A stretch of 64,000 nucleotides of DNA, from the NCBI GenBank assembly GCA_000004985.1, contig GG738873.1; one strand, 5' to 3'. Of this stretch, positions 19,907 to 51,388 are shown piece after piece. The translations under genes and the position numbers were made by a program. Each line of letters starts with the position of its first letter. Position 1 is the first letter of the stretch. The DNA comes from Naegleria gruberi (Eukaryota). The notes under the pieces are model-generated. The model had not been told where the DNA came from and did no database searches. It saw nothing but the letters and a program-made list of their open reading frames with translations.

Positions 19907-20026
19907 GACTACAGCACCACAGGTTCCCAAGTTGTCTCCAACCTCAGTACTGATGTGGCTCGACGATGCTTAACTTCTCAAATCGGACGGGATGAGGTGC
20001 ATTCATCGTGATATGGCCGTAGCCAT
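19907..20026 (-). rRNA. rrn5: 5S ribosomal RNA gene (copy 1)
   Basis: Reverse complement reads ..GGCTACGGCCATATCACGATGAATGCACCTCATCCCGTCCGATTTGAGAAGTTAAGCATCGTCGAGCCACATCAGTACTGAGGTTGGAGACAACTTGGGAACCTGTGGTGCTGTAGTCTTTTT; helix I pairing 5'GGCTACGGC/3'GCTGTAGTC; followed by T5 Pol III terminator (plus 19902-19906). Confidence 0.9.
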
Positions 20027-20077
20027 TCATAATCTTAAATTAAGGTTTATTTATCGTTTTTCAGCTTTGTGTAGACA

Positions 20078-20999
20078 CTAATCATCATCTGGTCCAATTT
20101 CAGTTTCACTCGACCACAAAAATAAATTATCCTTCAACAATTGTAGTATCAGTACAGCATCCCTTTCATCACCATATTCATCTTGCTTTTCCAATAATTC
20201 CTCAATGTGTGTCATGGCTAGATCGAATTCTGGACGTGCAATACTAATTGCCTTTCCAACATCAAACATTATGTCAGAATAAAAATATGAATAGTTTAGA
20301 ATAAGCCCCAATCTAATAGAATTCGTGCAAGGTAAGAGATTGATCAGCTCATATGATTTTTCATAACTTTCCAAAGCTTTAGCTTTCCAATCTGAAATTC
20401 TAAATCTATAATCCACATTGTAAATATATTTGAAAAAATCTCCTTTAACTTTCCAATAAAAAACAGAATCCACCAATGACAAACTTTCCACCTTCAAAAC
20501 TTGATCAATAATCTCATTAATTTCATAACAATAGTGCTCTGTTTTTTCCTGAATTTCTTTCACAAATCTTTCACACAACCCAACTTGCCAATCTTCTCCC
20601 TTATTCTCATGTCTACTCTGCACATTCACAACACTTCTAAAAGCCTTACTATAATCATATAATACATTTTTATAGGCAACCACTAATAGAGATCGTTCCT
20701 CAATTGTGGGAATGGGTTCATGAACCGATTGAATAATTATTTCCAAGATTAAACTCTTCATTTCCGAAACCATATCTTGATCATCAATATCATCAAATAT
20801 ATCAATTATTATTATCATCATCAATTATTATTAATAATAATAATTAATAGCAATGATGATGAATTATTATTATATTGGATGTTTAAATATCATCAAACTC
20901 ACCTTCATAACGACCTGCTTGTTCACATAATTTTGCATTGAATAATTTCTCATTCCGAGAGGCAATGAAAGGTTGTTGTAATGATGGTGATAAAGACAT
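20078..20999 (-). CDS. Highly divergent 14-3-3-like protein; 2 exons (20999..20893, 20776..20078)
   Basis: Exon 1 'MSLSPSLQQPFIASRNEKLFNAKLCEQAGRYE' (cf. AKLAEQAERYDDM); exon 2 'ERSLLVVAYKNVL', 'VFYWKVKGDFFKYI', 'NSIRLGLILNYSYFYSDI', 'AVLILQLLKDNLFLWSSE' match 14-3-3 helices 3, 7, 8, 9; minus-strand donor GTGAGT at 20892, acceptor ..gatcaag at 20777. Confidence 0.75.
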
Positions 21000-21433
21000 T
21001 TTTTTTATTAATATTTTGTAAAGAATTGAAATTACAATTGCAAACATTTTCAAACAATCAAGAAAAATTGTAAACAGAAAATACACATGTTAAAGTTTAG
21101 TATTGAATTACAATAATATTAAAGAATGTTACAATTTGCATCACAAAGTTTGCCATTGAAGGAATTTACTCCTTCAGCTAGTTCTATTTTACAAAATGGA
21201 ACCTCATGATTGAATTTTATTAATTTTTTAAAAGGAATCTTAAAAAGTAATTCAATAAAATTTAGTCCTTAATCTTAAAATGGAATTTCGAATAAAAAGT
21301 AAACTAAACTTTTTTCCAACAATTTTTTCTCAATAGTACCTAGGTAGTGACAATCGGAGCCTTTCACCTCCATTTATTCTAAATCTGGCATAAAACTGTT
21401 ACACTCCTGTCAAAATTCAACGTTAAAAAAAAA

Positions 21434-24400
21434 ATGTCAACAGTAACCAAAGTCAACTCTCTGTTGCTTTGGGCTCAGAATGCCACAAAAAACTACGACA
21501 ATGTAGAAATTAAAACCTTCTCATCGCCTTCGTTTGCTAATGGCTTGGGTTTTTGTGCTATTATTCATCACTTTCGTCCGGATTTAATTCCCTATGGTAA
21601 GTAGTGATGATTTTTTGTATAAACCAAGTTGTGTTGATTTTTGTGATGATTTTTTGTGTTGATTTTATTTGAAATGGTGATTTTGTGGTGTGATTGGGTG
21701 TGATTCATTTCGGATAACACTTTCGAATATGTATTGTTTCGAATACAGATACATTGACCACTTTGAATGCCAAACACAATTTAGATTTGGCTTTTAGAGT
21801 AGCAGAACATGAATTGGGATGTACACAATATTTGGAAACAGAAGATTTGTTAAATTGGTTAGTAATCAACATCATCATTGTGAAAAGTATTAACAAACTT
21901 TGGACGAAATTAATTCGAAACTTGGGGAAAAAAACAGTGCTCGACCAGAACCAAAAACCATTCAAATGCAACTCAATGAATATCGAAGAGTTTTAGGAAG
22001 TGCCAATGAAATTCATAAAAAGAATTCTGATTTTGGAGATTTAGTCAAAGATTACGAAGATGCACAATCATTGAAGAGATCGGCAACAATGCCACCAAAG
22101 AGTTTTGAAAATCCGAATACTTTATTGAATTCTTCATCGTCTTCCTCTCCTCAGGGAGCTTCATCTGCCAATTTGGGAAGCAAACTTTCAATTCAATCGA
22201 GTGGTGGCAGTTCAGATGATCCAAAGAAGGGAATTGTTGCAAGACAGAAAGAGGCCTATTTGCAAGAAACTAAACCATCGATTACCATTACGAGTAGCTC
22301 ATCTCAATTTGATCAATTAAAGAATATGGATGATGCCAAGAAGAAAATTAAAGAATTATACGAACAAGTGTCCAGTTTGAGAGATGACAGTGATAGTATT
22401 AGAAGGGAGAATAGTGATTTGAGTATGAAATTCAGGGAAGCTCAACATTTGAAAGATGAAACTGAATTGGTATTTAAACAACAAAATGAAAATCTCAAAA
22501 AGAAAATTTCACAACAACGTCAAGAAATTGAGGACGAGAAAAATTCCAAACTCTCACTGGAAACATCAATTACCAAATTGAAACAAGAATTGGAAACTTT
22601 GAAAAAGGAAAGCACTGAATACAAGAAGAAGATTGAAACTTTGGAAAAGTTACAAGAATCTAATAAGGAAAGTTCTAAATCTGCTTCAACTGATCTTCAA
22701 AAACAAGTTGCCGAGCTCAATAATCTACTCAAACAAAAGGAACGTGTCATTTCTCAATTCGAAACTGAAAAAATTTCAACTTTCAAGGATTTACAAAACA
22801 AACTTGCTGAAAAGGAAAAGGATATTCAAAGTTTGAAGAATTCTCTTAAAAACCTAACAGAGGAAGCTGAAAAGACTAAGATTGAAAAGGAATCTTTAAT
22901 GAGTGAAATGAGTCAACAAGAAGGACTTTCTGGTGAGCTCAGCAAATTACAAGACTCACTGAAACAAATTACAATGGATAAACAAATTGCCGAAAGAAAA
23001 GCTCAAGACGTTGAAATGCAAAGAAATGATATTACCCAAAAACTCACTCAAGTACAAAAAGAACTTGAAGACTCCAAAAAGAACCTTTCTACCAAGTTGA
23101 CCGAATCTCAAAAATTAGAACAAGAATCAAAGAGTTTGAAAGAGCAAAATTCAAAACTCTCTCAAGAAATTTCAGAAAAAAACAAGTTACTCGAAAAGGA
23201 AAAACTCAATTTGAAGGAAGGTAACGAAAAGGTTCTCACTGAAAAACAAAAACTTGAAAAGGAAGTTGAAGATTTGAAAAAGCAAATTGCCAAATATATT
23301 GAAACTTCAAAGGAATTGGATAAGGCCAACAATGAAACCAAGAAATTCAGTGATATGGTCAACAAGCTCACCACCGAAGTTTCCACACTAAAGAAGGAAA
23401 AGGAAACTCTCAAATCAGAAAAGGAAAATGTTGAGCTCTCAATGAAACGTCAAGCAACTGAACTAGAGGAAAAGTATCAAGAAAAAATCGATCAATTTTT
23501 GGAAAAGAACAAAATGTCCTCAAAACAACAACAATCAGTTCTTGATTTACAAATTGAAGATCTCAGAGATCGTATTGAAGACCTCAAGAGAGAGAAACAA
23601 CTCGTTAAAGATGAGCTTAATCAAGTAGAAAGTGCCAAGAATCATGAGATTACAGAATATAAGAACAAGATTAGTCAACTTGAATCAGATCTCTCTAAAA
23701 AGTCCTCTGTCTCTCCATCCGTTGCCAATTTACCACAACTCATCGAACAAGAAAGAAAGGAAAGATTTGTTTTGGATCAATCCATTCTCTGTTTTGAAAA
23801 TTGCACATTCTCTAACCAAATTCCAACACCAGTCAAGTCCATCTATCATGCTCTCAATTTCTGGTTAGAATCTAGTGAAACATTTGGAGTCAATCTTGTC
23901 AATTCTCTCAGTTACAAGTTTGGTTCTTACATTACCTATGATTTACAAAAATCTGCTTACTGGCTCAATGTCATGATTAGAATTTTACACTTGTTGAAGA
24001 ATGAATCAGAATATGAAAAGAAGATCAAGTCCATTCTCAAGAATAACATTAACGAAAAGCAATTTACTGCCCTCACCACTAACGAATCAATTACAAAGAA
24101 ATCAGAATTCCTTGTACTTTCTCATTTCTCACTTTCTAATGATGGAAAAGTTCAACAACCATCCATTGACAAGTTTTTAATTTCTCTCTCACAACTCATT
24201 TATGATTCCTATTTTGAAATTATTAAGAGTATGCTCTTGAAGGCCAAACCTTTGATTTTAGAGAAATTGTTTGGTGTTACAAAGAATAATCCAACTCCAA
24301 CCTTAGGTAAAGTTAGTGGAGATGTCAAGATTGATGTAATTGTAAAGAATATGGCTTCATGGATGGATCAAATTAAGGATAGTTATTTGGATGCTCGTTT

Positions 24401-25231: not shown

Positions 25232-25325
25232 ATTTGATGTTAACATAAATCTCAGGTTCTACTATTAAATCCTAATTTAAATATTAATCGAGTGGAATGA
25301 TTATTTACAAGTATTTGAAAATGAT

Positions 25326-26110: not shown

Positions 26111-26334
26111 GGTGGTGTTGGAATATTTTTTAAAATGCTGCAAAAATATTTCGTGTTCCTTCAAAATTAAAAAGGAGGGAAAATTTTATTGCTTGTTCCC
26201 TGCAAGAGAATTCCGAGCAAAGGTTGAAATTTTTAATTTTTCAATATGAACAATAAGGAAATTTATTAAGAATGATGAAAATTATGTTATTGAATAATAA
26301 GAGATGGAATAATATTTAGTTAATTTTAATAATC

Positions 26335-27440: not shown

Positions 27441-27441
27441 T

Positions 27442-29028: not shown

Positions 29029-29139
29029 TTTTGATTGGCATTCGCTTATCCAATTTGACCTCAAAATGTCAATAAATAGAACCAACAATGTATTGTAAAT
29101 GGATTGGATGTTAACTCTTCCAATCAATAACAGAAAAAA

Positions 29140-33527: not shown

Positions 33528-35429
33528 TTATTGGATTAAACATTTAGGTTTACCATTATTCGAAACTTGAGAATCCTGTAAAAGACAGCACTTTACAATC
33601 AATTCTTTCAATTCTTCAATTCCCACCATTTTCAATGAAGAAACTTCTGTAAATGATAAACATTTCAATTCTCTGGCTAGATTTTCTCCTTCCTCATACG
33701 AAACTATTCTTGGTTTTTCTTTCGAATAAAAATTTTCTCCTGGATTATAATTCCTCAAATCAGATTTTGTTCCCAACAGTAGAATTGGTGTTTTTGGTGA
33801 GTGAAGTCTTGTTTCCTCTACAAAAGTATCCTTAACTCGATGAAAGCTGTCTAAATTGTAGATACTGTACACTACAATGGTAAGATCTGGTGGAGGAGAG
33901 TAGGATAAATATCTAATTATTTCATAATCATATCCTCCAGCTGTATCTCTCATTTGGAGTGTGAATGTTTGATTTTTGAGAGTTACTGGAATTGGATGTT
34001 CACTTTCGAATACTGTTGGGATGTATTCTTGTGGAAATTCATTCATGGCTAGTACTATTTGCATTGAGGTTTTACCAACATTTGATGATCCAATTACGGT
34101 AATTCTAAATTCATGTAAATTATTTTCAGTTTCCTTGACAAGTTGTTGAATGTCTTGTTTTAAAATTTCCTGTTTTGGCTTGAATTGAAATTCAATGAGG
34201 GTTTTAATTCTTCCCAGTTCAATAATGTGATTTTTGGATTGTTGATAAAAAGTTCTTGAATGTAAAGCAAGATTGTAATAATTAACTCCACTACGTCGTG
34301 GGCTCACATTTTGTGATTTGCTTAACAAGAACTTCTTCCATAATTTGTCCTCAATGCTTAGTTGACTAAGTTGACAGTCTTTTCCAATCAATTGAACATT
34401 ATTGAGATCATGAACTGGTAAATATTCCAAAATCATTCTAAAAATGTCTTCGTTTAGCATTGATAACTTTCCATTATTTTCCTTTGCATTGATATTTGAG
34501 ATAGATTGTTGATATTTTCCTCCCCAGACAAAATAATAAACCACAAAGGTTAATTCGTGGGGTGTGTAAATGGTCAATGAATGGAAAACAGGTCCAAATT
34601 CAGAATTATTAAACACTCGAGAGAGAAAATGAAAGTTTTCTTCTCTCCACTCATTCTTCTCTGAGAGGTTTAAACTATGTAGAGTGGTAAAATCATGATT
34701 TGAATTACAACCACCAATCAAGAATAGCCTATCGTTTTCTATCCATGATTTGTGACCATATCTTGAAATATTTTGAGGAATTTTCTTGATTTTACAATTC
34801 AGATACTCAGATTCTGATAAATTTTCTAAATCAATTAGTAAAACGTCATTGATTGGAATATTTCCACTTTGTTTTCCACCTGAAATGATCAACAAATTAT
34901 TGTAAATCAGTGAGGAATGAAAGTATCTCCCCAAAATTTCATTATTTTTCCTATTTTTTAAAGACCGACATTTCCATTCGAAAGTTTTCAAATTTAATTC
35001 GAAAACTTGATTGGAAACAAATCCATCAGAATCATATCCACCAAATATAATCATGGAATCTTTGTAAATCTCAGCAGAATGTCCAAATCTGGGAGAAATA
35101 ACTTGATCATTCACAGTTGTTAGTTTCGTCCATTTTCCAACAGATTCCTTTGAATTAAATTCGAATTGCCAAACATCAGCTAGATATCCATTCGATTTAC
35201 CACCAAATAAAATCATTTTGTGATCATGGGAGATTGCAGAATGGAAATTTCTTGGAGATGGTTTTTCACCTTCCGATAAAATTATTGGAATGCAAGATTC
35301 TGATGAAATTTCATAAACTCTCAACTGATCAGAGTATTCGTTTTGATTGGCACTTTCGAGTAATCCACCAAAAATTAAAATATATTCATTGTTGATATTG
35401 ACGGATGTGTGACCGATGAGTTTTGACAT
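33528..35429 (-). CDS. Kelch-repeat + F-box-like + Rho-family small GTPase fusion protein with CAAX box
   Basis: N-terminal Kelch blades ('IFGGL','ILFGGKSNGYLADVWQF','IIFGGYDSDG','LIGGC'); 'LNEDIFRMILEYLPVHDLNNVQLIGKDCQ..LWKKF' F-box-like; C-terminal GTPase 'VIGSSNVGKTS','IPTVFE','DTAGGYDYEIIRYLSY','LLGTKSDLR', ends ..PKCLIQ (CaaX). Confidence 0.75.
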   Translation of the reverse strand: MSKLIGHTSVNINNEYILIFGGLLESANQNEYSDQLRVYEISSESCIPIILSEGEKPSPRNFHSAISHDHKMILFGGKSNGYLADVWQFEFNSKESVGKWTKLTTVNDQVISPRFGHSAEIYKDSMIIFGGYDSDGFVSNQVFELNLKTFEWKCRSLKNRKNNEILGRYFHSSLIYNNLLIISGGKQSGNIPINDVLLIDLENLSESEYLNCKIKKIPQNISRYGHKSWIENDRLFLIGGCNSNHDFTTLHSLNLSEKNEWREENFHFLSRVFNNSEFGPVFHSLTIYTPHELTFVVYYFVWGGKYQQSISNINAKENNGKLSMLNEDIFRMILEYLPVHDLNNVQLIGKDCQLSQLSIEDKLWKKFLLSKSQNVSPRRSGVNYYNLALHSRTFYQQSKNHIIELGRIKTLIEFQFKPKQEILKQDIQQLVKETENNLHEFRITVIGSSNVGKTSMQIVLAMNEFPQEYIPTVFESEHPIPVTLKNQTFTLQMRDTAGGYDYEIIRYLSYSPPPDLTIVVYSIYNLDSFHRVKDTFVEETRLHSPKTPILLLGTKSDLRNYNPGENFYSKEKPRIVSYEEGENLARELKCLSFTEVSSLKMVGIEELKELIVKCCLLQDSQVSNNGKPKCLIQ

Positions 35430-36159: not shown

Positions 36160-36232
36160 GCCCGTCTAGCTCAGTCGGTAGAGCGCAAGGCTCTTAACCT
36201 TGTGGTCGTGGGTTCGACCCCCACGGTGGGCG
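36160..36232 (+). tRNA. tRNA-Lys (anticodon CUU)
   Basis: GCCCGTCTAGCTCAGTCGGTAGAGCGCAAGGCTCTTAACCTTGTGGTCGTGGGTTCGACCCCCACGGTGGGCG folds as cloverleaf (7-bp acceptor with 2 G-U pairs, D-arm GCTC/GAGC, anticodon loop CTCTTAA, T-arm GTGGG/CCCAC); near-identical to metazoan tRNA-Lys-CTT. Confidence 0.9.
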
Positions 36233-36238
36233 ATTCCG

Positions 36239-36242
36239 TTTT
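36239..36242 (+). terminator. Pol III oligo-T terminator after tRNA-Lys
   Basis: TTTT run 7 nt downstream of the discriminator base. Confidence 0.5.
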
Positions 36243-36412: not shown

Positions 36413-39400
36413 CTAGAAATTTTGAATGTCAGCACTTGTTGGTCTCATACTTGGTTCCTTTGAGACCATAGTCACAATAAAATTGCAAAGCTTCTCAGAG
36501 TAACCTCTTGATATCAAGTGTTCCATTGTTCTGTCCAACACCACTTCTTCCTTATCGTATAATAATTGAGCTGTAATGTTTAAATCTAAGGAATCATTTG
36601 CCATGGCCTGAATGAGTGAAACTCCAAGTGAAAATATATCAGCACTATAACTGTATTTTCTAGAAAAGACCTCAGGTGCCATATATTGCAATGTTCCTGC
36701 AACTGAATTTTGAGTTTCTCCAGTTTCCTTTGCCTCTCCATAATCACCAATAACCACTTGGATTTCATCCAATTCACGGTCCAATTTACTATAGAAAATA
36801 TTACGTGGTTTGATATCTCTGTGAACAATTAGTTTCTCTTGGTGAAGATAGTTCAAACCATCTCCAAGTTGTTTCATGATGGAGATGATCATCTTCTCAG
36901 AGACAATCTTTCCATCTTGTTTCAAATCTTTCAAGGCATGTTCCAAGTCGCCTTCATAAAATTTCATTACAATACAAATAGATTGAATAATCTGTGCTTC
37001 AAAGAATTCATAAACTTCAACCAGATTTGCATGTCTGTATGAAAGTGTTTTGGAACATTCATCAATAATTTTAGAATGTCTGCTTTGATCATAACTAATA
37101 GTCTTGATGGCAACTGGCATGTCATTCTTTTTAGAATCCAAACAGAGATAACATTTACCAAATGCACCCTGACCAATAACTTGTTGAATCTTGTATCTAT
37201 CTTTGAGCAAAGAATGATCTGTGTTTTGAGTAGAAGAAGTAGTAGTTGTGTTAGTATTGGAAGTATTGGAAGACAATTGGTACAAGGAATTGTTAAAGGT
37301 ATCGCTTGGGAAATCTGAAGTCACTGATGTACTATTATTGGCTGTTTGAGTGACATTTTCATCAATGGTTGTTATCATTTCAATTGGTTTTTCCTTAGTA
37401 ACCAGTGGTTTGCTTTTCTTCTTCTTTAATTTCACAATGAGACAGATGGTGACAATGATTGCAAGCAATATTAACAATACCAATAATGTTAAACCCACAA
37501 CCAATCCAACAATCAATCCAATGTTAGAATTAACTGGAGTAGTCACTTGTCCATTCTTGGATGCAAGTGGAGAGACATAGGTAGGAGGAACAATTCTATT
37601 CTCACAACTCAATCCACTATATCCTTCCAGACATGAACAACCATTACTTGATGTACATGTTCCATTTCCACTACAATTTTTCACGGCATCACAAGAGAAG
37701 AGGGAACAATCGAGACTTCCCTTCCATCCACTAGTGCATGAGCATGTATTATTACTCACACAGAAACCATGTCCTGAACAGGCATTCAATGTTTCACATG
37801 AGAAGAGAGAGCAATCAGAACTTCCTCTCCAGCCAGAATAACACGAACAATTGTTCATTACACAATCTCCATGTCCACTACATTGATTCTGTAGGTCACA
37901 ACCAAAAGAGATTGCTCTCACCTTTCCATTACTTGTGTCAGCAATGAAAATTTTAGATTCATCAGCAGAGAGAGCTACTCCCATTGGTCCATAAAATTGA
38001 GTTTCCAAAGGGTGCAAATTCTCTCCATTGTATCCATACAGTGGTGCAGTACCAGCAATGGTTATCAAAGTTCCATTCTTAAATAATTTCCTTATGGCAT
38101 GGTTTTGGGAATCAGAAATCAATAGTTCATCATTGGATAAAATGGCAAGACCAGCAGGATATCTCAACATTGAATTAACACCACTCAAATTCTCCCCACT
38201 ATATCCATCCACCCCAGTTCCTGCAATGGTAATGAGGGTTCCATCATTGAGAATTTTTCTCACTCGATGGCCTTCATACTCTGAAAAAATAACTTCATTA
38301 TTAGAGGTCAGTACAATTCCATATGGATTATTAATATTGGCACTAGTTGCTAATAGCCCATCTCCATTGTAGGTAGAAGTACCGGTACCAGCTACAGTAA
38401 TGATGGTCTGATTGAAAAACACTTTTCTAATTCGATGATTTCCAGAATCGGTAATGTACAAATCTCCATTTGTGGATCTGGCAATTCCTTTTGGTAAATT
38501 TAAATGAGCACTAGTAGCAGGAATGTTATCAGCATTGTATCCAGTAGTTCCAGATCCAGCTTTTGTTATTACAATTCCACTAGAAGATATGAGATATTTC
38601 ACAGTTGACGAATCAACAAAATAGTACTCCCCTACATTGGGCACGAGTGGAGATCTGGGTGAAATATAACTTGGAGTAATGGTTGTGATAATTCCACCGA
38701 GTGAAATCTTTCTCAATCTATAATTTCTTGTGTCGGCCACAATAACCTCATTATTTGGAGCGACAGCAACCGATTCTGGACCAAAGAGTTTTGCCTTCAC
38801 TGCCTCAATATTATCACCATTGTAGCCGAGATTGGAACCTGTTCCAGCAACAGTAGTGATGATATTGTTTGTGTTAATCTTTCTGACTCTGTAATTTCCA
38901 CCATCGGAAATGAAAATCTCCCCACTCGAGGATATAGCAATGCCTCTTGTGACTCTGAACATGGCATTGGATGCCAATTGATTGTCTCCAGCATAGCCAT
39001 ATGATGATCCAGCTATTAATGTTGCAACTCCATTCGTTTGAATCATGTACACTTTATCTGAAACAGTGACATAGAGAGCACCAGTGATTGGAGATATTGC
39101 CATTCCATTGACTGTATTAGTCTGGCCAGAGAGTTCAAAAGTAGTGAACATGACTACACTGGTGCCATTATTGAAAACCTTTCTAATCTTGTCATATTCT
39201 CCAATGTAAACTTCTCCACTATTAGAGATGGCAATGGAAGTGGGGAAGTTTAACTGTGCATTAGTTGCATCCTGTACCACAGTGGATGTATCTGTTCCAC
39301 CTCCAGCGAATGTTCTAATGATACCATCCGTATACGAAACTACACGAATTTTGTTATTTGAGGTTTCTGCAATATATAAATTATTATTCACAGGAGAGAT

Positions 39401-39961
39401 GACAATTCCACCTGGTGTATTCAATAGTGCATTGGTAGCGACTCCATCATCACCGATACTCCCTGGTACACCAACTTGACCAGCGTATGTGCTAATCAAA
39501 TTACTAGATAATATGACCTTTCGAATAACATGACTATTCGTATCAGACAAGTACATGACATCACTATTCTGAAAAGCAAGTGCACTAGGATAATTGAAAC
39601 GAGCCAAAGTTGCTATAGTTGTCGTGACAGAACCAGGAATACCCACACCAGCAATTGTTTTAATTTTACCACTACTTGCCACTACTTGTCTCACTCGACA
39701 ATTTATCTTGTCAACTATGAAAATGTCACCATTGTTACTTGGAGAGAGTGCAAGACCATCAGGTATGGCAATTTCTGCCTTGGTAGCATCAATGTTATCA
39801 CCATTGTAACCATTGGGATAACTACCTGCTATGGTTTTTACATGGTATAAAGATTGACCGTGGACAATTGGTTGGGCAGCAAGAAACACCAAGTGAAACA
39901 AAAACAACAATGGTAGCAAGAATGTTGAGCTATTAGTGTTGTTGAGTTTCAATTTGTCCAT
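36413..39961 (-). CDS. Receptor-like protein kinase: signal peptide, multiple NHL repeats, tenascin-type EGF repeats, single TM, cytoplasmic kinase domain
   Basis: NHL-like blades ending in ..RVRKI/..RIRKV/..RLRKI (x8 or more); 'CSGHGDCVMNNCSCYSGWRGSSDCS..CSGHGFC..CSGNGTC' EGF units; TM 'IGLIVGLVVGLTLLVLLILLAIIVTICLIV'; kinase motifs 'IGQGAFGKCY','VAIKTI','HRDIKPRNIF','GDYGEA','YMAPE','DIFSLG'. Confidence 0.85.
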   Translation of the reverse strand: MDKLKLNNTNSSTFLLPLLFLFHLVFLAAQPIVHGQSLYHVKTIAGSYPNGYNGDNIDATKAEIAIPDGLALSPSNNGDIFIVDKINCRVRQVVASSGKIKTIAGVGIPGSVTTTIATLARFNYPSALAFQNSDVMYLSDTNSHVIRKVILSSNLISTYAGQVGVPGSIGDDGVATNALLNTPGGIVISPVNNNLYIAETSNNKIRVVSYTDGIIRTFAGGGTDTSTVVQDATNAQLNFPTSIAISNSGEVYIGEYDKIRKVFNNGTSVVMFTTFELSGQTNTVNGMAISPITGALYVTVSDKVYMIQTNGVATLIAGSSYGYAGDNQLASNAMFRVTRGIAISSSGEIFISDGGNYRVRKINTNNIITTVAGTGSNLGYNGDNIEAVKAKLFGPESVAVAPNNEVIVADTRNYRLRKISLGGIITTITPSYISPRSPLVPNVGEYYFVDSSTVKYLISSSGIVITKAGSGTTGYNADNIPATSAHLNLPKGIARSTNGDLYITDSGNHRIRKVFFNQTIITVAGTGTSTYNGDGLLATSANINNPYGIVLTSNNEVIFSEYEGHRVRKILNDGTLITIAGTGVDGYSGENLSGVNSMLRYPAGLAILSNDELLISDSQNHAIRKLFKNGTLITIAGTAPLYGYNGENLHPLETQFYGPMGVALSADESKIFIADTSNGKVRAISFGCDLQNQCSGHGDCVMNNCSCYSGWRGSSDCSLFSCETLNACSGHGFCVSNNTCSCTSGWKGSLDCSLFSCDAVKNCSGNGTCTSSNGCSCLEGYSGLSCENRIVPPTYVSPLASKNGQVTTPVNSNIGLIVGLVVGLTLLVLLILLAIIVTICLIVKLKKKKSKPLVTKEKPIEMITTIDENVTQTANNSTSVTSDFPSDTFNNSLYQLSSNTSNTNTTTTSSTQNTDHSLLKDRYKIQQVIGQGAFGKCYLCLDSKKNDMPVAIKTISYDQSRHSKIIDECSKTLSYRHANLVEVYEFFEAQIIQSICIVMKFYEGDLEHALKDLKQDGKIVSEKMIISIMKQLGDGLNYLHQEKLIVHRDIKPRNIFYSKLDRELDEIQVVIGDYGEAKETGETQNSVAGTLQYMAPEVFSRKYSYSADIFSLGVSLIQAMANDSLDLNITAQLLYDKEEVVLDRTMEHLISRGYSEKLCNFIVTMVSKEPSMRPTSADIQNF

Positions 39962-41618: not shown

Positions 41619-41659
41619 TAATTTTAATGGTTTGTAAACTTGGAGATTGAACTGACAGT

Positions 41660-44600
41660 TTGTTAAAAAAAATGATAATTGACCAACACCAAACTGCACC
41701 TCGTTGGATTTGCAACAAGTGCCAAGGATTCATCGATAGGGGAACAATCCGATACGTCAATACTGATGAAAAGGACTTTGACTTGTGTGAAAATTGTTAT
41801 CACTGGTGTTGGGAACAGTATCAGAAGAGAAAGCAACATAATACAAATTCACAATTTAATTCTCTTGATGATGATGGTGATGATGATGTTGGGAATAACA
41901 CGGAAAATAACAAAATATTGGACATGTTCTGTAGGGATTTGGAATTTATTGTACCAACCAAGTATCACTATTCTGAAATGAAAGGACGAATTAAAAGTTC
42001 CGATCGGTTTAATAGTTCTCTGTTTAGATCATTTGTTGAATATTCACTCAATCCTTGCTTTGGATTGTTGAAACAAGATGATGGTCCCTATCATTTTCAA
42101 ACCTATGAACAGGTATTTCATTTGATTTGTTGCATCAGTATTGGATTAGATCAGATTTTGAAACCATTAATACGAGTGGGAAAGAGACAATTTGTATCAA
42201 TATGTGGAAAGAATAATTTGTATTGGTATTTGAGTGATTATGCTTGTTTCTTTAGGGGGTTTGTGATTGCCCCCATTCATTTTGCTCAATCATTTGAGGA
42301 GACGAAATATTGCATTGAACTGACAGAGAGTCAAGTTGCTATTTGTACTGAAGAAATGTTAGATTTATTCATTAGAATTACCAAAGAGTTGGATATTGTG
42401 AAATATATTATTGTAATGGATGATACAGAATCAAAATCAAGAGGAAAATTTACCAATCAAAGAGGAACACAAGAAATTGAAATTATTCCAATGAATGACA
42501 TTATTGACGCTGGAAAATCAATATTGTGTGAATATTTGAATGAAAAGAACAAACCAAGAACGAATCCATATCCAGAACATTATGAAAATCACGAGACAAT
42601 CCTTGTGACTCCACCTCAGGACAAGTACGATCCTAGAAAGATGTGGATTGGAGTGGAACATGAAGAATTTATTCTAAATAGGTTGGATAATGAGGAGGAT
42701 CTAGTGACTCTTGTTTTCACAAGTGGATCCACTGGTATTCCAAAAGGAATCATGATGAGTGATAGAGCTTTGAGAAAGGAAGTACTCAGTTTAAGGATAA
42801 AAGATCCTAAAGTTCGTTTCTCTTTTTGTCCACTCGCTCACATGAGTGATAGAAAATACACCCTATTGGCCATGTGTAATGGAGCCAGAGTTGGAATATT
42901 TACTAGAGAATTTGTTCACATCTTTGAGGATATTCAAAACTGCAAACCAGTTGTAATTGCATCCACTCCAAGATTATTCAATGTGCTGTACGATGAGTTT
43001 AAGAAAGTAGTCGAATTGGAAAGAATTCGTTGGCTTTCTTCCACTGAAACTGGGAAACCAAAAACTGAGAAGGAACTTGAGGAAAGAACCATGCTTGACT
43101 TTCAATACATGCTTGGTGGGCGTGTTCAATCAATTATTCTTGGAGGGGCTTCTTCTAGCCCACAATTAAGAGAATTTTTGGCAAAATGTTTCCAGTGTAA
43201 AGTAACAGATGGTTTTGGAATGTCTGAAGCTGGAGGAATTATGAATAACAATCGACTCAACACTAATGTCGAATACAAGTTGATTGATGTTCCTGAATTG
43301 AGCTATTTCACAACAGACAAACCTTATCCGAGAGGAGAACTTTGTGTCAAGACAAATTACATGTTTATTGGATATTATAAGAATGAAGAGCTCACTAATA
43401 ATGCACTGGATGAAAATGGATGGTTACACACCAACGATATTGTTGAAGAATTAGGACCAAATCAAATCAGAATTATTGACAGACTGAAGAATATTTTCAA
43501 ATTGAGTCAGGGTGAATTCATAGCACCTGCCAAGATTGAAGATGCTCTCACTACCTCTAAATTTATTTTCCAAGCTTTTATTTATGGCAATGTGACAAAG
43601 AGCTACTTGGTTGGTGTCATTGTTCCCAACAAAACAGTTTTAAAACAGTTTGCAATTAAGGAAGGAATTATCAAACCATCAGCCGATCACCATCTCCTAA
43701 ATGAAGAAGAGAAAGAAGTATTGGCAAATAATGAGCTGATCAAGAAAGCTCTATGTGAAGAGATTGAGAAAGTTGCTGTAAATTGTTCACTTTTGTCTTA
43801 CGAAGTTCCAAAAGATTTTATCATTGAATTTGAACCTTTTAGTGAGAAAAATGATTTACTAACCTCCTCTATGAAGGTTAAGAGATTTGGATGTGAAATG
43901 AAATATAAGGAACAATTGGAGACACTCTATGAGCATGTAGATAGAAATTACAAGAGAAAGTTGGACGAAGATTTGATTCGTGAATTGTTAGTGAACTCCT
44001 CATCAGGCTCAGAGGAATCTGCAGATGGAAATATGAAAATTATTGACAGTCTTCATGCAGTTAAATTTTCTGGAATTATGAAACAAAAATTCAACATTGA
44101 CATTCCACTTTCATTGATATTTTCTCAAACGGATAGGAATGTGGAAAGTGTAGTGAGTAGAGTTTCAAACTTTGTCACAAAAGGCCAAACTAATCAGCAA
44201 TCGTATGACTGGAAAAAGGATATTCTCTTACCACAAGAACTTCTCGATGAAATTACTGACATTACTTCAAAAGGAAAGCAGAAATTCAATAAGATATCAA
44301 ACCTAAAGAAGGGTATTCTTCTGACTGGCTCAACTGGATTTTTAGGTGCCTTCCTATTGAGAGATTTATTGGAGAATTTACAAACAGCTCAGGAGCATGT
44401 GAAAATCTATTGTTTGATAAGAGAAAAGAATCAGCAACACAGTTTATTCACTAGATTGAAGAAACATCTTGTAAAATTCAATATCTGGAAAGATACTTAT
44501 GAAAGGAGAATATCTGTCATTAGGGGAAATTTACAGGATGAGAATTTAGGTCTCTCTCATGAGGAATTCAACAAATTGGCTGGAGATGTTGACATTATTT

Positions 44601-45604
44601 ACCACAATGGAGCATATGTCAACTCAGTCATGTCGTACTCTCAATTATTCTCTTCCAATGCTGGATCTACGTACTATTTATTGAAACTTGCTTGCCTGTC
44701 ATCAAAATTGAATATCCAAAATGATGGAGATTCCTTAACACCAATTATTCTCGTTTCAACTGTTGGTGTTGTACAATCTGCGTTGTCAGAATTTGATCTA
44801 CCAACCAGAAAATCTCAAGTTAATGATAACCCTCAGGAAACTAAAGAAATGATTAGCAATCATGTCGATCAAGTCATTGGTCAACTGAAACCAATTATTG
44901 AAAAAGCAGCTGGGTATAACAGCACCAAATTTATTGCAGAACAATACATTCAACAAGCAAGGTTATTGGGATATCCCGGTGCCATCTTTAGACCAGGAAT
45001 GATTGGAAGTGATACTGAGAATGGAGTTTCGAATTTAGAGGACTGGGTCAATAGGTTGATTCTGGGATGTTTCGAATTGGGTTGCTTCCCACAAACCAAA
45101 AAATCTCTCAATGTCATTCCTGTGGATATTATTTCAAGAGTGATTGTGGAATTGACACAGAATGAGAATGTATTCATTGGTACTTTACAATCCAATCCAA
45201 ACTATTTGATTTATGAGGTGGCTAATCTTTCTCAATATGAAATTCAAATTGATAATTTACTTGGCATCGCTGCCACAACTCTAGCGAAATTGCTAAACAA
45301 GAAACCAATGGAAATGGTTAGCTACACTAAGTGGAAACAAATACTGAATGAGAGAACATCAACCGAAGAAAACGAAATGTTATTGATTTTGAAAACTCTC
45401 TTCAAATCAGATACGGAATTTCTAAAAAGCATAAACAAACTCCAAGACAACCACATTCAGAAAATCATTGAAGTTCTTTCTAGATCAGAAAGCATACAGT
45501 GCAGAGAATTAGTTCCTAACAAAAATCTAAACCAAAACTATCTTGAAAAACAAGCTCTATACCTAGTCCAGAGTCTCAAGAAGAAATTGGGCGAAAATTT
45601 ATAA
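41660..45604 (+). CDS. ZZ-type zinc finger + long-chain acyl-CoA-synthetase-type adenylation domain + phosphopantetheine carrier + NAD(P)-dependent thioester reductase (carboxylic-acid-reductase-like A-T-R enzyme)
   Basis: 'WICNKCQGFIDRGTIRYVNTDEKDFDLCENCYHWCWEQY' ZZ finger; AMP-binding core 'TSGSTGIPKG', 'GWLHTNDIVEE', 'IIDRLKNIFKLSQGEFIAPAKIE' (ACSL-like); PCP-like 'IDSLHAVKFSGIMKQ'; R domain 'LLTGSTGFLGAFLL', 'YHNGAYVN', 'GYNSTKFIAE' (YxxxK); single 1314-aa exon. Confidence 0.8.
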   Translation: MLKKMIIDQHQTAPRWICNKCQGFIDRGTIRYVNTDEKDFDLCENCYHWCWEQYQKRKQHNTNSQFNSLDDDGDDDVGNNTENNKILDMFCRDLEFIVPTKYHYSEMKGRIKSSDRFNSSLFRSFVEYSLNPCFGLLKQDDGPYHFQTYEQVFHLICCISIGLDQILKPLIRVGKRQFVSICGKNNLYWYLSDYACFFRGFVIAPIHFAQSFEETKYCIELTESQVAICTEEMLDLFIRITKELDIVKYIIVMDDTESKSRGKFTNQRGTQEIEIIPMNDIIDAGKSILCEYLNEKNKPRTNPYPEHYENHETILVTPPQDKYDPRKMWIGVEHEEFILNRLDNEEDLVTLVFTSGSTGIPKGIMMSDRALRKEVLSLRIKDPKVRFSFCPLAHMSDRKYTLLAMCNGARVGIFTREFVHIFEDIQNCKPVVIASTPRLFNVLYDEFKKVVELERIRWLSSTETGKPKTEKELEERTMLDFQYMLGGRVQSIILGGASSSPQLREFLAKCFQCKVTDGFGMSEAGGIMNNNRLNTNVEYKLIDVPELSYFTTDKPYPRGELCVKTNYMFIGYYKNEELTNNALDENGWLHTNDIVEELGPNQIRIIDRLKNIFKLSQGEFIAPAKIEDALTTSKFIFQAFIYGNVTKSYLVGVIVPNKTVLKQFAIKEGIIKPSADHHLLNEEEKEVLANNELIKKALCEEIEKVAVNCSLLSYEVPKDFIIEFEPFSEKNDLLTSSMKVKRFGCEMKYKEQLETLYEHVDRNYKRKLDEDLIRELLVNSSSGSEESADGNMKIIDSLHAVKFSGIMKQKFNIDIPLSLIFSQTDRNVESVVSRVSNFVTKGQTNQQSYDWKKDILLPQELLDEITDITSKGKQKFNKISNLKKGILLTGSTGFLGAFLLRDLLENLQTAQEHVKIYCLIREKNQQHSLFTRLKKHLVKFNIWKDTYERRISVIRGNLQDENLGLSHEEFNKLAGDVDIIYHNGAYVNSVMSYSQLFSSNAGSTYYLLKLACLSSKLNIQNDGDSLTPIILVSTVGVVQSALSEFDLPTRKSQVNDNPQETKEMISNHVDQVIGQLKPIIEKAAGYNSTKFIAEQYIQQARLLGYPGAIFRPGMIGSDTENGVSNLEDWVNRLILGCFELGCFPQTKKSLNVIPVDIISRVIVELTQNENVFIGTLQSNPNYLIYEVANLSQYEIQIDNLLGIAATTLAKLLNKKPMEMVSYTKWKQILNERTSTEENEMLLILKTLFKSDTEFLKSINKLQDNHIQKIIEVLSRSESIQCRELVPNKNLNQNYLEKQALYLVQSLKKKLGENL

Positions 45605-46267
45605 AGTTTTAAGAAAAGATAAAGTTGCAATATGTCTGAGTTTTCTGGATTTTCAAAAAGTGAAATATTCCGAATGTTAAATTGAAATACTTATTACCAG
45701 GTTAGCTAGCCATAAAATTTGTCATCATACATGCTCGGAATTTGACAAATACTCAATTTTACTCTGATTGAGATTTCTTTGTGCAATGATTTTTCAATTA
45801 ATTAAAAGAGTTAGGTGGCTCCTAATCTGACGGTTTGTGCAATGTCTGATTGAAACCAAATCAAAGTGAGCAATTAAGCTCAAACCCTGATCCCTACAAA
45901 AAATTGAGTTAATAGTAGATGCAACCCGTGAGCTGCTTTCAGCTATTAAACTGAAAAGAAAAGATACTACACTCGATCAAAGCCAATTGGCCGAGAAAGA
46001 TGGTTTTGAGAATTGCATAAGGAACAGAGTATTTATTCTGTTGGTTGTGGAGTGAAGAATGGCAAAATGTTTGTGGTATTTTAATAAATTTTAATGCCTT
46101 GTTCGACTATTGATATTGAACATGTAGCGAATCTTAATAATCAATATTTATGATGGAGCAGTTCAATCAGAACTTGGAAAGAATGTGAGAAGCAAACTTG
46201 ACTAACAATTAAGGGGGATGCATTGATAAGTAAAACGTGAACTAGTGAAAAAAACAAATAAACAAAA

Positions 46268-46387
46268 AGACTACAGCACCACAGGTTCCCAAGTTGTCTC
46301 CAACCTCAGTACTGATGTGGCTCGACGATGCTTAACTTCTCAAATAGGACGGGATGAGGTGTATTCATCGTGATATGGCCGTAGCCA
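46268..46387 (-). rRNA. rrn5: 5S ribosomal RNA gene (copy 2)
   Basis: Same 5S sequence as copy 1 with 3 substitutions (..GAATACACCTC.., ..CCTATTTGAG..); T-run terminator on minus strand (plus aaaaa 46264-46268). Confidence 0.9.
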
Positions 46388-46502
46388 TACATACTAATAA
46401 AATATGAAATAAATGAATTCACAATAATGACATTTCAAAATCCTTACTTCGTTTCTTAACCTTAGTAAGAAACAATCATTCATTATTCTCATTAATGGAT
46501 TA

Positions 46503-48110
46503 TTAAAATTTAATAATAATTTTCTTATGTTGACTCTTATCATATTTGGTAATAGTAAAACAATTAAATTGTTTCAAATTGATTGTTAACCATTCGTAAA
46601 ATTCTTTAAATTGACAATTATTGGAATCATAATCACCATACAATTCCACTATCAAAGTGGTCAATTTTGCCAACTTGCATACCTCCTTTCTAAACTTATC
46701 TCCAAAAATGTATTCCCACTCAATTTGATTTACTTTGAGAGTTGTCAAACTGGTTAACAACCCCAAGTTTAAAAACCTAAATTTCACTCTCGACAGTCCA
46801 GGATAAGTTGGTATCGTAAACTCAAAATATTCCAATTTCTCAAGCTTTGAAAGATGAATTAATGGAATGCAATCTGAGAATGTCAAAGATTTGAGTTCAG
46901 GGAAACCTTGAATCATTTGAAAATCATCTAACAAAAGAGTTTGTAGTTTCACTCTGCTCAGAGTTTTAGAATTTGATAATTGAATTATGGATTCCATATC
47001 AGATCTGTTAGTATCAATGATTAATGTTTTCAATTTTGGAAATTCAGAAAGAGAGGCACATACATCAACCATGGAATCATTATGGTTATCATGTTTGGCA
47101 TCCAGAATTTGTAGTGTTGTTAAATTTTTCAATTGTTTCAAACTGTCTGCTTTTTCCAAAGTCAATCCTCCATAAAAACTTAAATATTCTAAATTGGGGA
47201 AATGCTGAATATTGTCTAAGGTACTCCCACATTCATATTTACTCCTCAATTCCAATTTAGTGCATTTATCATAAATTTGATCAAGTTTAATTTTATCCAT
47301 ACCAAAACAAAAGATATCCACCAGTCTTAAATGTTCCACATTAGGAAATAATTTTAAAATAGGTTTCAATAATTCTAGATTTCTTGGCACATCCTCAAAA
47401 TTTACAACCTTGATAGAATTAAAAAGATCTTGATTCCTCTTTGATTTTGCTGATAATTTCTCAATCTTGTGGCAATATGCATTCACGAACTTTTGTTCAA
47501 TTTTTCTTTCCTTAGTTAACTTGGATCTATCAAAGCTATCACCATCACAAACTTCACACTTTTTCTGAAATATCAGCTTTTTATCCGAAATTTTAGTAAT
47601 TTGATTCAACAGTTGAGTTTCCCAATATGGAATATTAGAACTATTCAAACTTTTCATTTTCCATAACAAAAATTTAACTCTCGCCATATTGGAATTCTTC
47701 CTACACTCATTAACAAGTCCAAATTTAAATATAAATTTAATTCTTCCATCGGAGAGAAATCTTCCAAACCAATCCTTAATAAACAATTTCCAATCAATTA
47801 CAGATTCATCATTAAACTCATCAATACAAAGCGTCGAATTAATTATTACATTCCCACAAAATTCCAAAATATACAAGACACAATCGGAGGGAAGCCTAGC
47901 AAATTGTGAGGCAATACAACGAGAAGCAGAAACAGAAACAGAATTTGATGATCGCCTTATTCCGTCTTGTCGTTTAATCAATGCTGCGGAAGGAGTAGAA
48001 ACATGCCGTTTCGAAGTGATCCTATATGATGATGTTTTAATTGGTGATGAATTGGAAATATTCATAGTCGTGGTTGTATGACTGTTCATTCCTTCTTTAA
48101 AAGATTTCAT
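46503..48110 (-). CDS. Leucine-rich-repeat hypothetical protein
   Basis: 535-aa ORF; C-terminal half has irregular LxxLxLxx(N/C)xL repeats (..LKNLTTLQILDA.., ..LKTLIIDTN.., ..LKSLTFSDC..). Confidence 0.5.
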   Translation of the reverse strand: MKSFKEGMNSHTTTTMNISNSSPIKTSSYRITSKRHVSTPSAALIKRQDGIRRSSNSVSVSASRCIASQFARLPSDCVLYILEFCGNVIINSTLCIDEFNDESVIDWKLFIKDWFGRFLSDGRIKFIFKFGLVNECRKNSNMARVKFLLWKMKSLNSSNIPYWETQLLNQITKISDKKLIFQKKCEVCDGDSFDRSKLTKERKIEQKFVNAYCHKIEKLSAKSKRNQDLFNSIKVVNFEDVPRNLELLKPILKLFPNVEHLRLVDIFCFGMDKIKLDQIYDKCTKLELRSKYECGSTLDNIQHFPNLEYLSFYGGLTLEKADSLKQLKNLTTLQILDAKHDNHNDSMVDVCASLSEFPKLKTLIIDTNRSDMESIIQLSNSKTLSRVKLQTLLLDDFQMIQGFPELKSLTFSDCIPLIHLSKLEKLEYFEFTIPTYPGLSRVKFRFLNLGLLTSLTTLKVNQIEWEYIFGDKFRKEVCKLAKLTTLIVELYGDYDSNNCQFKEFYEWLTINLKQFNCFTITKYDKSQHKKIIIKF

Positions 48111-48215
48111 TTTTTTTATTAAAAAGAAATTACATAATTAATTCAAGTTTTATATTTCTCATGTACTTTACAATTAATTTGGAGTGATAGAATTAGTCCA
48201 GATAGAATGAGTCAA

Positions 48216-49590: not shown

Positions 49591-49753
49591 TTTTTTTAAT
49601 AAACTTTACAATGACAGTGAAAATCTAGCAAAAAAAGAAAGTTCTCTTTAATGATCAATTCCGATAATATTCTATATTTTCATAACATCAAGAAAACCAT
49701 CTAATCTACCTAATATCTTAAAAATATAATATGAGAGTTTATTTATCTCTGGC

Positions 49754-51243
49754 TCATTCTTTTAAAACCCAATTTGAAAGAATATCTGGATCTACAGTAA
49801 GCAAATCATCAACAATTTCTCCTGCCACCACTTTTTTGAAATATGGAATGGAAGTGACTTTACATTCTCTGAAAATGTCCAACATTTCATCATTATCCAG
49901 TTTGTAAAATTTGAACTTTGAATTCAAATTGGACAATTTTCCAAATTGTGGAGAAACCATTTTACAAGGGCCCTAATTAGATTTGTACACAATTTAGAAT
50001 AACTACTTACACACCAGGTTGCTGTAAAATAAATAATTGCATTTTCTTTTGAAGAGAAAATAGCCCTAAAATCCTTTTCTTCTGTTATTGGAACTGCCTT
50101 ACCCATGATTTTCGTTTCCAAGTCCAATTTTAATGTTATCAATTCATTAGATTCTCTCAATTGTCCAACAAGTGTCATGACTTTCTCAATAGATCCTTCC
50201 TCAATATTTAATTCAATGCTATTTGATAATGTATTGACAAAATCAATGCATGATTCTGTTCCCTCTCCTTCTAAGCTCGTTATAAGTTCTCTCACCGATG
50301 CAACAATCTTTCTTGATTGTAATTTTGAAGAGTAGAATTTATCAAACTCCCTACATGGTTCTATATACTTGTCTATTGGGAAATTATTGGCACAATTCAA
50401 ATGCAAGAATGTGAGTAGCTCTTCAGTTAAAACCTCTTCTCCACACGATAATAATTGTCTTTTTAAGGTTGAATCTGATCGAGACAACCGAAGAACTGGA
50501 ATATAAGGAAGATTAAATTCATCTGACATATCATTCTTTTCAATGTCCATGCAAAGAATTTGAATTTTCTCTCCACCTTCTTCAAGTAGTTGAGCCACAA
50601 ATTCTATTACTGGAAATAAATCATCACAAGGCTCACAATTATTAATATAATTGACAACTAACACATCCATACTTGATTTCCAAACCAATTCATCATATGC
50701 AGAGTGAACCAATTTCTTCAAACTCTTCCAACCTTCAAGTTGATCGTTTAGAGATCTCTTCTCGCTCTTGTAAAATACCTTCTCCTCTCCAGATCTGATT
50801 CTATCAAGCCAACCCAATATTGGTTCAATCTCAAAAGTACCTCTATACAAAAACTTGAACACTCTCTTTGAAAAATATCTATACAATAAGAGTGCTGGTT
50901 CGAGAAGTTCAGAAATACCAAAACACTCTGGTAGATTATCCGACTCACTCAGAGGAGCATTAATCCAAACAATATCAACAACATTGGTTTCTTGGGTATC
51001 CTCATCCAACAACAATTCCATGGAGAATAATTTCCTTTGAGTGGCCTCATCTTCCGATTGTAGGATGGTTTCAATTTTTGAAAGGAAATCTTGTTCTGTT
51101 CCCTTATTAAAACAATACATTACACATCTACCATCCAATCTGGCTGCTTCTGGCGAAGAAATGGAAATCAATTTGGACATTTTTTTGAGTGAACTTTTTC
51201 TCCTTGATAATCCATTTATGAAAAATGTTCTTCCTGTTTTCAT
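49754..51243 (-). CDS. Thioredoxin-domain-containing protein (long N-terminal region + C-terminal Trx fold); 2 exons with 38-nt intron 49973..50010
   Basis: Splicing GTAAGT(50010)..AG(49973) reconstitutes the thioredoxin active site '..IIYFTATWC|GPCKMVSP..FYKLDNDEMLDIFRECKVTSIPYFKKVVAGEIVDD'. Confidence 0.7.
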
Positions 51244-51268
51244 TCAAAATGGTGTTTAAAAGATGAAA

Positions 51269-51388
51269 AGACTACAGCACCACAGGTTCCCAAGTTGTCT
51301 CCAACCTCAGTACTGATGTGGCTCGACGATGCTTAACTTCTCAAATCGGACGGGATGAGGTGCATGAATCGTGATATGGCCGTAGCCA
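51269..51388 (-). rRNA. rrn5: 5S ribosomal RNA gene (copy 3)
   Basis: Same 5S sequence; variant ..CACGATTCATGCACC.. in loop B region; oligo-T terminator (plus aaaa 51266-51269). Confidence 0.9.

Follow-up and report, generated by a model that had tools for sequence, protein, structure and literature searches.

The window analysed here, a 64-kb stretch of the heterolobosean Naegleria gruberi (scaffold_29:256001-320000), carries three 5S rRNA genes, each of them full length and on the minus strand. All three match Rfam model RF00001 from end to end and exceed its gathering score of 38 bits. A permissive Rfam scan (E<=1) of the 64 kb returned no extra 5S copies or fragments. The three minus-strand genes had been proposed in an earlier reading of this DNA, the original prediction, with coordinates that were off by 1 to 2 nt, and Rfam confirms them. 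What the copies have in common is a unit of about 147 bp, consisting of the 119-nt gene, 14 bp of upstream DNA and a T-rich terminator.

Table. Features of the three 5S rRNA loci in the 64-kb window, with the corresponding entries in Table S1 of PMC3369914
Feature	Copy	Position in window	Strand	Sequence or remark	Table S1 entry
5S rRNA gene	1	19906..20024	-	RF00001, 105.4 bits, model 1-120 of 120	scaffold_29:275905-276021
5S rRNA gene	2	46268..46386	-	RF00001, 98.2 bits, model 1-120 of 120	scaffold_29:302267-302383
5S rRNA gene	3	51269..51387	-	RF00001, 100.3 bits, model 1-120 of 120	scaffold_29:307268-307384
Conserved proximal upstream block, -14..-1	1	20025..20038	-	TTAAGATTATGAAT	
Conserved proximal upstream block	2	46387..46400	-	TTATTAGTATGTAT	
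Conserved proximal upstream block	3	51388..51401	-	TTAATATTATGAAT	
T-rich terminator region	1	19892..19905	-	T5, run starting at the last base of the gene	
T-rich terminator region	2	46254..46267	-	T5, then GTTTATTTG	
T-rich terminator region	3	51255..51268	-	T4, then CATCTTTT	
Upstream word AGTAAGGATTTTGA, -62..-49	2	46435..46448	-	exact match	
Upstream word AGTAAGGATTTTGA, -39..-26	3	51413..51426	-	exact match	

The source had originally been taken for a dictyostelid, an assignment that does not survive comparison with known sequences. One protein encoded in the window matches an N. gruberi protein at 100% identity, and the spacings between the copies, 26,362 and 5,001 bp, agree exactly with those of the scaffold_29 loci listed in Table S1 of PMC3369914. 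The helix word in the 5S copies that had been called dictyostelid is GGTTGGAGACAAC. In that survey, published in PLoS One in 2012, 279 putative N. gruberi 5S genes were described as lying apart from the rDNA units and as having an internal control region (ICR), a TATA box and T-run terminators (PMC3369914). The three loci were already catalogued there, and dispersed chromosomal 5S genes were already known for N. gruberi; upstream conservation, flanks and neighboring genes of these same loci were not analyzed in that work.

The published coordinates also describe how the family is arranged across the genome. When the 279 entries of Table S1 are parsed, 5S copies fall on 117 scaffolds, and the gaps between copies on the same scaffold have a minimum of 363 bp and a median of 33.8 kb. 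Only 2 of 162 such gaps are shorter than 1 kb, and 33 of 162 are shorter than 5 kb versus about 5.4 expected, a pattern of loose clustering; head-to-tail 5S arrays are absent from the Table S1 coordinates. Within the window, protein-coding ORFs separate copies that stand 26.4 kb and 5.0 kb apart, an arrangement that is not a tandem array. Table 1 of PMC3369914 scores the N. gruberi arrangement as "tandem," a label at odds with the coordinates in the same paper, which are those of scattered, loosely clustered single genes. The dispersal of 5S genes among protein-coding genes stated in the original prediction is supported, and the genes are intact and solitary.

The large rRNA genes of Naegleria are found elsewhere. 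The Naegleria circle known as CERE is roughly 14 kb long, is present in thousands of copies and has no 5S in its gene list (PMC5805870 and related announcements), and for N. gruberi itself the genes named on the rDNA circle are limited to one each of 5.8S, 18S and 28S (PMC5805870). Circle and chromosome complement each other in this organization, with 18S, 5.8S and 28S on the circle and 5S on the chromosome in the window, and the claim in papers on the rDNA circle that Naegleria nuclear DNA holds no rRNA genes fails for 5S. Dictyostelium discoideum has a linear extrachromosomal rDNA palindrome that includes the 5S gene. It is like Naegleria in keeping its large rRNA genes outside the chromosomes, but it belongs to a different supergroup, and its linear palindrome with 5S differs from a circle without a listed 5S. 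The contrast with this palindrome that had been drawn for the present loci is irrelevant, as the source is Naegleria, where chromosomal 5S is the known state. Dispersed 5S genes are also described for a free-living amoeba, Acanthamoeba castellanii, in which about 100 copies are spread across most chromosomes, apart from 18S and 28S (PMC9528979). A. castellanii, however, is a member of the Amoebozoa and thus of an unrelated lineage, and its 18S and 28S genes are chromosomal, with no circular element detected (PMC9528979).

Pairwise comparison of the copies in the window gave 2, 2 and 4 differences, instead of the 3 to 4 reported originally. Copy 1 is identical to the consensus sequence, and every consensus base pair of the Rfam structure is standard in it. 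Of the two variants in copy 2, G25A keeps its pair by changing G-U to A-U, and G41T disrupts C34-G41, the closing pair of loop C, leaving C34-U41 as the sole nonstandard pair of that copy. In copy 3, A22C lies in an unpaired loop and G21T disrupts the terminal pair of helix II, formed with C57, so that U21-C57 is its sole nonstandard pair. The three-way junction and helices I to V form from standard pairs in all copies, with zero or one nonstandard pair in each. Slight impairment of copies 2 and 3, each with one consensus pair broken, could result.

Similarity between the copies continues past both ends of the gene. In the block from -14 to -1, 10 of 14 columns are invariant across the three copies; random triplets of 14-mers drawn from the window never exceeded 9 invariant columns (0 of 200,000), and beyond the block similarity drops to background. 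On the 3' side, 7 of 14 columns are invariant from +1 to +14, and all copies have at least four T residues at the 3' end. Within the gene, box A is GTTAAGC at positions 51 to 57, which fits the box A pattern of PMC3369914, and a box C-like sequence, GGTTGGAGACAACTTG, at positions 82 to 97 matches the relaxed pattern but not the strict consensus.

The upstream block bears directly on how the copies arose. Retrocopies had been suggested, according to which 5S transcripts were reverse-transcribed and inserted singly, leaving what would be mostly nonfunctional pseudogenes. Solitary copies with unrelated flanks agree with this idea, as does the one pair-breaking change in each of copies 2 and 3, but the similarity reaches 14 bp into nontranscribed DNA, and an RNA copy would not bring the invariant columns that lie there. 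We found no A-rich tails at the three copies and no flanking direct repeats, either longer than 7 nt or at the boundaries, that could represent target-site duplications, and every copy is full length and retains its terminator. In addition, because published descriptions of the extrachromosomal circle list no 5S on it, the chromosomal copies must supply the 5S rRNA of the cell and so must be working genes. Taken together, this evidence makes an origin of the three copies as retrocopies highly improbable.

Outside the 147-bp unit, when flanks of 200 nt and 1000 nt were aligned locally, scores were no different from those of shuffled sequence, except for the 14-mer AGTAAGGATTTTGA and one AT-rich low-complexity match. 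The flanks had been called unrelated, and segmental duplication had been argued against; both statements are borne out by this comparison, which also speaks against the possibility, raised at the same time, that the loci are parts of a transposon with conserved flanks. A broader version of that possibility would place 5S inside a repeated mobile element, such as a 5S-derived SINE, or inside a segmental duplication carrying neighboring DNA, and could appeal to the 14-nt word common to the upstream regions of copies 2 and 3 and to the local clustering of 5S genes genome-wide. Against it, the word stands at unequal distances from its two genes, similarity stops at the T-run with no common body or tail, and little else in the flanks aligns above shuffle level. 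We regard an origin of this kind as close to negligible in probability. With upstream blocks conserved, A-tails and boundary repeats absent and flanks unrelated, the copies have the features of neither retrocopies nor 5S-derived SINEs.

All three copies lie near protein-coding genes, which were identified here from ORFs and Pfam. Copy 1 is located 53 bp past the stop codon of a 14-3-3 gene, with 13 bp between its other end and the ATG of an ORF downstream, copy 2 is located 116 bp past the stop of a weakly LRR-like ORF, and copy 3 ends 25 bp ahead of the ATG of a thioredoxin-domain ORF. These distances replace earlier values of 51 bp for the 14-3-3 gene and 115 bp for the LRR gene, and from the range of 25 to 80 bp given for the thioredoxin-domain gene, the figure of 25 bp stands. 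A homologue search with the thioredoxin-domain ORF gave no matches, the ORF itself included. The description of the 5S genes as tightly abutting genes in the same orientation needs qualification on both counts. Orientation is the same for the nearest ORF of each copy, but the other neighbor of copies 2 and 3 lies on the opposite strand, and 4 of the 6 neighboring ORFs have the orientation of the 5S gene. The gaps are indeed short, but no shorter than compactness alone would give: 77% of the window falls within ORFs of 100 aa or more, with a median gap of 204 bp, and 5S genes lie close to protein genes because the genome is this compact.

Such closeness could still be functional if 5S units provided adjacent RNA polymerase II genes with promoters, terminators or chromatin boundaries, and the short distances from copy 3 to the thioredoxin-domain ATG and from copy 1 to the genes on either side of it are the observations that would favor such a role. 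In a genome of this density, however, any intergenic insert would come to lie near a gene. Neighbor context is also different at each of the three copies, which occupy a same-strand gene pair, convergent gene ends and a divergent promoter region, and agreement in orientation is limited to the fraction given above. A regulatory role of the 5S units toward their neighbors is very unlikely on this evidence. Separately, a kinase fragment was considered as a partial duplicate of the full kinase gene of the window, and was rejected as such.

Downstream of copy 2, at a distance of 264 bp and on the strand of the 5S gene, Rfam detected a U2 snRNA gene. Copy 2 is the only one of the three window copies with U2 beside it, and the window has no repeated 5S-snRNA unit. 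Diplonema papillatum is likewise a discoban with adjoining 5S and U2 snRNA genes, but there a linked 5S-U2-SL RNA unit is present in as many as 27 tandem copies (PMC10161547), whereas in the window one copy out of three has the pairing, which is unrepeated. Scanning metagenomes with the 5S core yielded one contig only, too few to define upstream motifs; it carries a lone 5S gene, one base different from copy 1, that adjoins a protein-coding ORF, with no U2 gene within 538 bp downstream of the 5S. At two loci of N. lovaniensis and one locus of a Logan assembly, all chosen through homologues of two window genes, tblastn found no neighbors in common with the window and Rfam found no RNA genes.

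Established here are what the genes are, that they are intact and where they lie, how far their common unit extends, which organism they come from and that copies are scattered genome-wide. We conclude that the three copies very probably belong to the dispersed chromosomal 5S family of N. gruberi as ordinary and most likely functional genes. Each would represent a solitary RNA polymerase III unit of the length given above, set in one of the short gaps between the densely packed genes of this genome. In this unit, the 14-bp upstream block would be followed by the 119-nt gene with its internal control region and then by the run of four or five T residues that would end transcription, an order of elements from which we infer transcription by RNA polymerase III. 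Purifying selection, gene conversion or a combination of the two probably keeps the copies nearly identical, and their spread probably took place at the DNA level, through duplication or insertion of a small unit, and not through RNA.

The sequence upstream of the genes provides a further lead. A short motif had been noted there for copies 2 and 3, and it is real: AGTAAGGATTTTGA, read on the gene strand, occurs exactly twice in the 64-kb window, at these two places only. After its occurrence at copy 3 comes a second TAAGGAT, with the AAGGAT core starting at -24, and enrichment was seen for this core, a word picked post hoc. As a promoter element of fixed position, AGTAAGGATTTTGA is ruled out by the 23-bp difference in its distance from copies 2 and 3. 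The -14..-1 block and a movable AAGGAT-containing element may be candidate upstream elements, to be taken as a lead only. In BLAST searches of N. gruberi, TFIIIB and TFIIIC were found and TFIIIA was not (PMC3369914). In such an organism, the candidate elements might replace or supplement recognition of the internal control region. It is conceivable, if rather doubtful, from a comparison that draws on four upstream regions and a word picked after the fact, that Naegleria 5S genes may need upstream DNA outside the classical type 1 promoter, and that the unit would be copied with the block included.

Many eukaryotes have dispersed 5S genes, and with these loci published in 2012, the three copies carry little weight as a discovery. 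The useful outcome is a set of corrections: to the source organism of this DNA, to the "tandem" label attached to the N. gruberi genes and to the statement that Naegleria has no nuclear rRNA genes. If transcription required the -14..-1 block as a promoter element, this would be relevant to the mechanism of 5S transcription in a lineage in which no TFIIIA has been found.

The three 5S rRNA genes in the window are best explained as ordinary members of a dispersed chromosomal 5S family in Naegleria gruberi. The original prediction read the sequence as dictyostelid, but an open reading frame (ORF) at 33528-35429 (-) is identical (100%, full length) to an N. gruberi protein, in a window of about 34% G+C densely packed with long ORFs. 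In addition, 279 putative N. gruberi 5S genes with scaffold coordinates were catalogued in 2012 (PMC3369914), and three scaffold_29 entries in Table S1 of that paper, at 275905, 302267, and 307268, have spacings (26,362 and 5,001 bp) that match those of the window exactly. The window therefore corresponds to scaffold_29:256001-320000 of this heterolobosean, the three loci are already catalogued in the literature, and the comparison drawn with Dictyostelium discoideum is irrelevant to it.

A covariance scan of the whole window at Rfam gathering thresholds (38 bits for the 5S family) placed three minus-strand 5S genes within 1 to 2 nt of their predicted coordinates, and relaxing the threshold to E of 1 brought in no extra 5S copies or fragments in the window. 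Each gene is 119 nt long. Copy 1 equals the consensus sequence and keeps every pair of the Rfam structure. Copy 2 carries G25A, which converts a G-U pair to A-U, and G41T, which disrupts the pair closing loop C, while in copy 3 helix II loses its terminal pair through G21T and the second change, A22C, is unpaired. Pairwise differences are thus 2, 2, and 4, rather than the 3 to 4 first proposed. These are intact genes with minor variants, not decayed copies.

RNA genes and neighboring ORFs in the window, and the 5S gene of an environmental contig
Feature	Position	Strand	Evidence
5S rRNA copy 1	19906-20024	-	Rfam, 105.4 bits, full-length
5S rRNA copy 2	46268-46386	-	Rfam, 98.2 bits, full-length
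5S rRNA copy 3	51269-51387	-	Rfam, 100.3 bits, full-length
U2 snRNA	45810-46003	-	Rfam, 109 bits, full-length
tRNA-Lys(CTT)	36160-36232	+
14-3-3 ORF	20078-20824		Pfam 14-3-3 domain, E 3.5e-42
LRR-like ORF	46503-48110		Pfam LRR match, sub-threshold only
Thioredoxin-domain ORF	49924-51243	-	Pfam thioredoxin, E 2.3e-11; 439 aa
5S rRNA of L004 (metagenome contig Ga0247722_10036048)	539-657	-	One base different from copy 1; solitary

When the three loci were aligned together with 200 nt on either side, identity was seen to span the gene plus a short distance outside. The proximal upstream 14 nt (TTAnnAnTATGnAT) have 10 of 14 columns invariant among the copies, a level not reached by random sampling (0 of 200,000 triplets of window 14-mers exceeded 9 invariant columns). 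Downstream, positions +1 to +14 are T-rich with 7 of 14 columns invariant, and more distal blocks fall to background (0 to 3 columns). Local alignments of the 200-nt and 1,000-nt flanks stayed at shuffle level except for a single 14-mer and a low-complexity AT-rich match, in agreement with the prediction that flanking sequences would be unrelated apart from a short motif. The common unit is therefore about 147 bp long and takes in upstream DNA that is not transcribed. Such a unit argues against copying from mature 5S RNA, against a repeated transposon with conserved flanks, and, as originally proposed, against segmental duplication. Retrocopies, an origin suggested at first, are also disfavored by the lack of A-rich tails at any of the three copies and of flanking direct repeats other than 6- to 7-nt AT-rich words located away from the boundaries. 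The extent of the shared unit instead favors DNA-level spread, or selection on the upstream sequence, over retroposition. Because the genes are near-identical while their flanks are random, strong constraint, gene conversion, or both would be implied.

Tight abutment of each 5S gene to a protein-coding gene in the same orientation had also been proposed. The distances hold approximately: 53 bp from the 14-3-3 stop to copy 1 (claimed as 51), 116 bp from the LRR-like stop to copy 2 (claimed as 115), and 25 bp from copy 3 to the thioredoxin-domain ATG (claimed as 25 to 80). Orientation is shared with only four of the six neighboring ORFs: copy 1 has a same-strand ORF on each side, copy 2 shares with U2 a space flanked by convergent gene ends, and copy 3 falls within a 1.4-kb interval that separates divergent ORFs. 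ORFs counted from stop to stop and 100 aa or longer cover 77% of the window and leave a median gap of 204 bp, so that any intergenic 119-nt gene is necessarily near a protein gene; among the three copies we found no evidence of closeness beyond this compactness.

Several other features of these neighborhoods can be recorded. U2 and tRNA-Lys(CTT) were the only other RNA genes detected by Rfam, giving five small-RNA genes in 64 kb; U2 sits 264 bp downstream of copy 2 on the same strand, within a 904-bp space between convergent protein-coding ORFs. An ORF at 41660-45604 (+) encodes 1,314 aa with Pfam AMP-binding and NAD_binding_4 domains. Both it and the thioredoxin-domain ORF are long and intact, yet neither has an identical or near-identical entry in a collection of 5.8 billion proteins, where the former has a sole match, an N. 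gruberi paralogue on another scaffold (71% identity), and the latter has none at E<=1e-10; both appear to be absent from the gene set deposited for N. gruberi. The ORF at 19163-19411 (-) encodes 82 aa with repeated (V/I)EDWPD(Y/L/F)K(V/I)Q units and no Pfam match. Another, at 19530-19892 (-), has its ATG 13 bp past the copy 1 terminator; its match to the protein kinase profile is confined to the C-terminal lobe (Pkinase 175-260 of 263; E 0.0017, below cut-off), with no N-lobe motifs nearby. It was rejected as a copy of the full kinase gene of the window (36413-39961) and may be either an exon belonging to a gene not yet recognised or an orphan piece that a rearrangement left behind.

When metagenome contigs were scanned for the 5S core, a single 1,964-bp contig was recovered, L004, probably from a close Naegleria relative. 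Its 5S gene is separated by 165 bp from a 361-aa ORF of divergent orientation whose sequence, by eye, resembles a hydrolase, and there is no U2 within 538 bp downstream. Its proximal upstream block is loosely similar, and including it leaves 5 of 14 columns invariant. Homologues of two window genes led to loci in N. lovaniensis and in a Logan assembly, which showed no synteny with the window and contained no RNA genes. Farther upstream, the 64-kb window contains just two exact occurrences of AGTAAGGATTTTGA, at -62 to -49 of copy 2 and -39 to -26 of copy 3, a variable distance that led us to reject a classical positioned promoter element. The AAGGAT core of this word turns up 4 times across the 400 nt that precede the three 5S genes of the window and the environmental one, versus 0.21 expected (nominal P 6e-5), and was not found upstream of copy 1, U2, or the tRNA; because the word was chosen after being seen, this enrichment is a lead only.

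In Naegleria, 18S, 5.8S, and 28S are single copies on a circular extrachromosomal element of about 14 kb present in thousands of copies (PMC5805870 and related announcements). The sequenced N. gruberi circle is described with these genes and two possible ORFs, 5S being unlisted (PMC5805870), and N. gruberi 5S was scored as not co-located with rDNA units (PMC3369914). With no 5S reported on the circle, chromosomal 5S genes are therefore expected and must be the working copies. A claim in the literature on this circle, that the nuclear DNA of Naegleria lacks rRNA genes, does not apply to 5S. Dispersed 5S rDNA is known in many species, according to a review (PMC6562748); Acanthamoeba castellanii has about 100 copies on most chromosomes (PMC9528979). 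In the discoban Diplonema, 5S, U2, and SL RNA genes form a tandemly repeated unit (PMC10161547), whereas the window holds a single 5S-U2 adjacency, a superficial likeness only.

Table 1 of PMC3369914 marks a tandem arrangement as present for N. gruberi 5S, but the coordinates in its Table S1 (279 entries across 117 scaffolds) contain no head-to-tail arrays. The 162 same-scaffold neighbor gaps have a minimum of 363 bp and a median of 33.8 kb, with only two below 1 kb. Clustering is loose, with 33 gaps below 5 kb versus about 5.4 expected for 279 genes evenly spread over 41 Mb (genome size from PMC10161547), and the three genes of this window, versus 0.44 expected per 64 kb (P ~0.01), are consistent with it. 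The total of 279 is probably an overcount, since some tiny scaffolds have entries at identical coordinates (e.g., 6695-6811 on both scaffold_248 and scaffold_382), which suggests that they may be duplicate or allelic.

Each 5S gene would operate as a self-contained Pol III unit made up of an internal control region, the block conserved just upstream, and a T run as terminator. A box A match (GTTAAGC) lies at 51-57 of the gene, GGTTGGAGACAACTTG at 82-97 matches box C under a relaxed pattern only, and a T4-5 run ends each gene. Given their integrity and the lack of another reported 5S source, all three copies would be transcribed and functional. The feature is real, intact, ordinary, and already in the literature, and the small interest that remains lies in two points. 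N. gruberi 5S genes should be described as "dispersed and loosely clustered" rather than "tandem," and the conserved upstream block, in an organism for which one study reports no TFIIIA (PMC3369914), is for that reason worth a genome-wide look.
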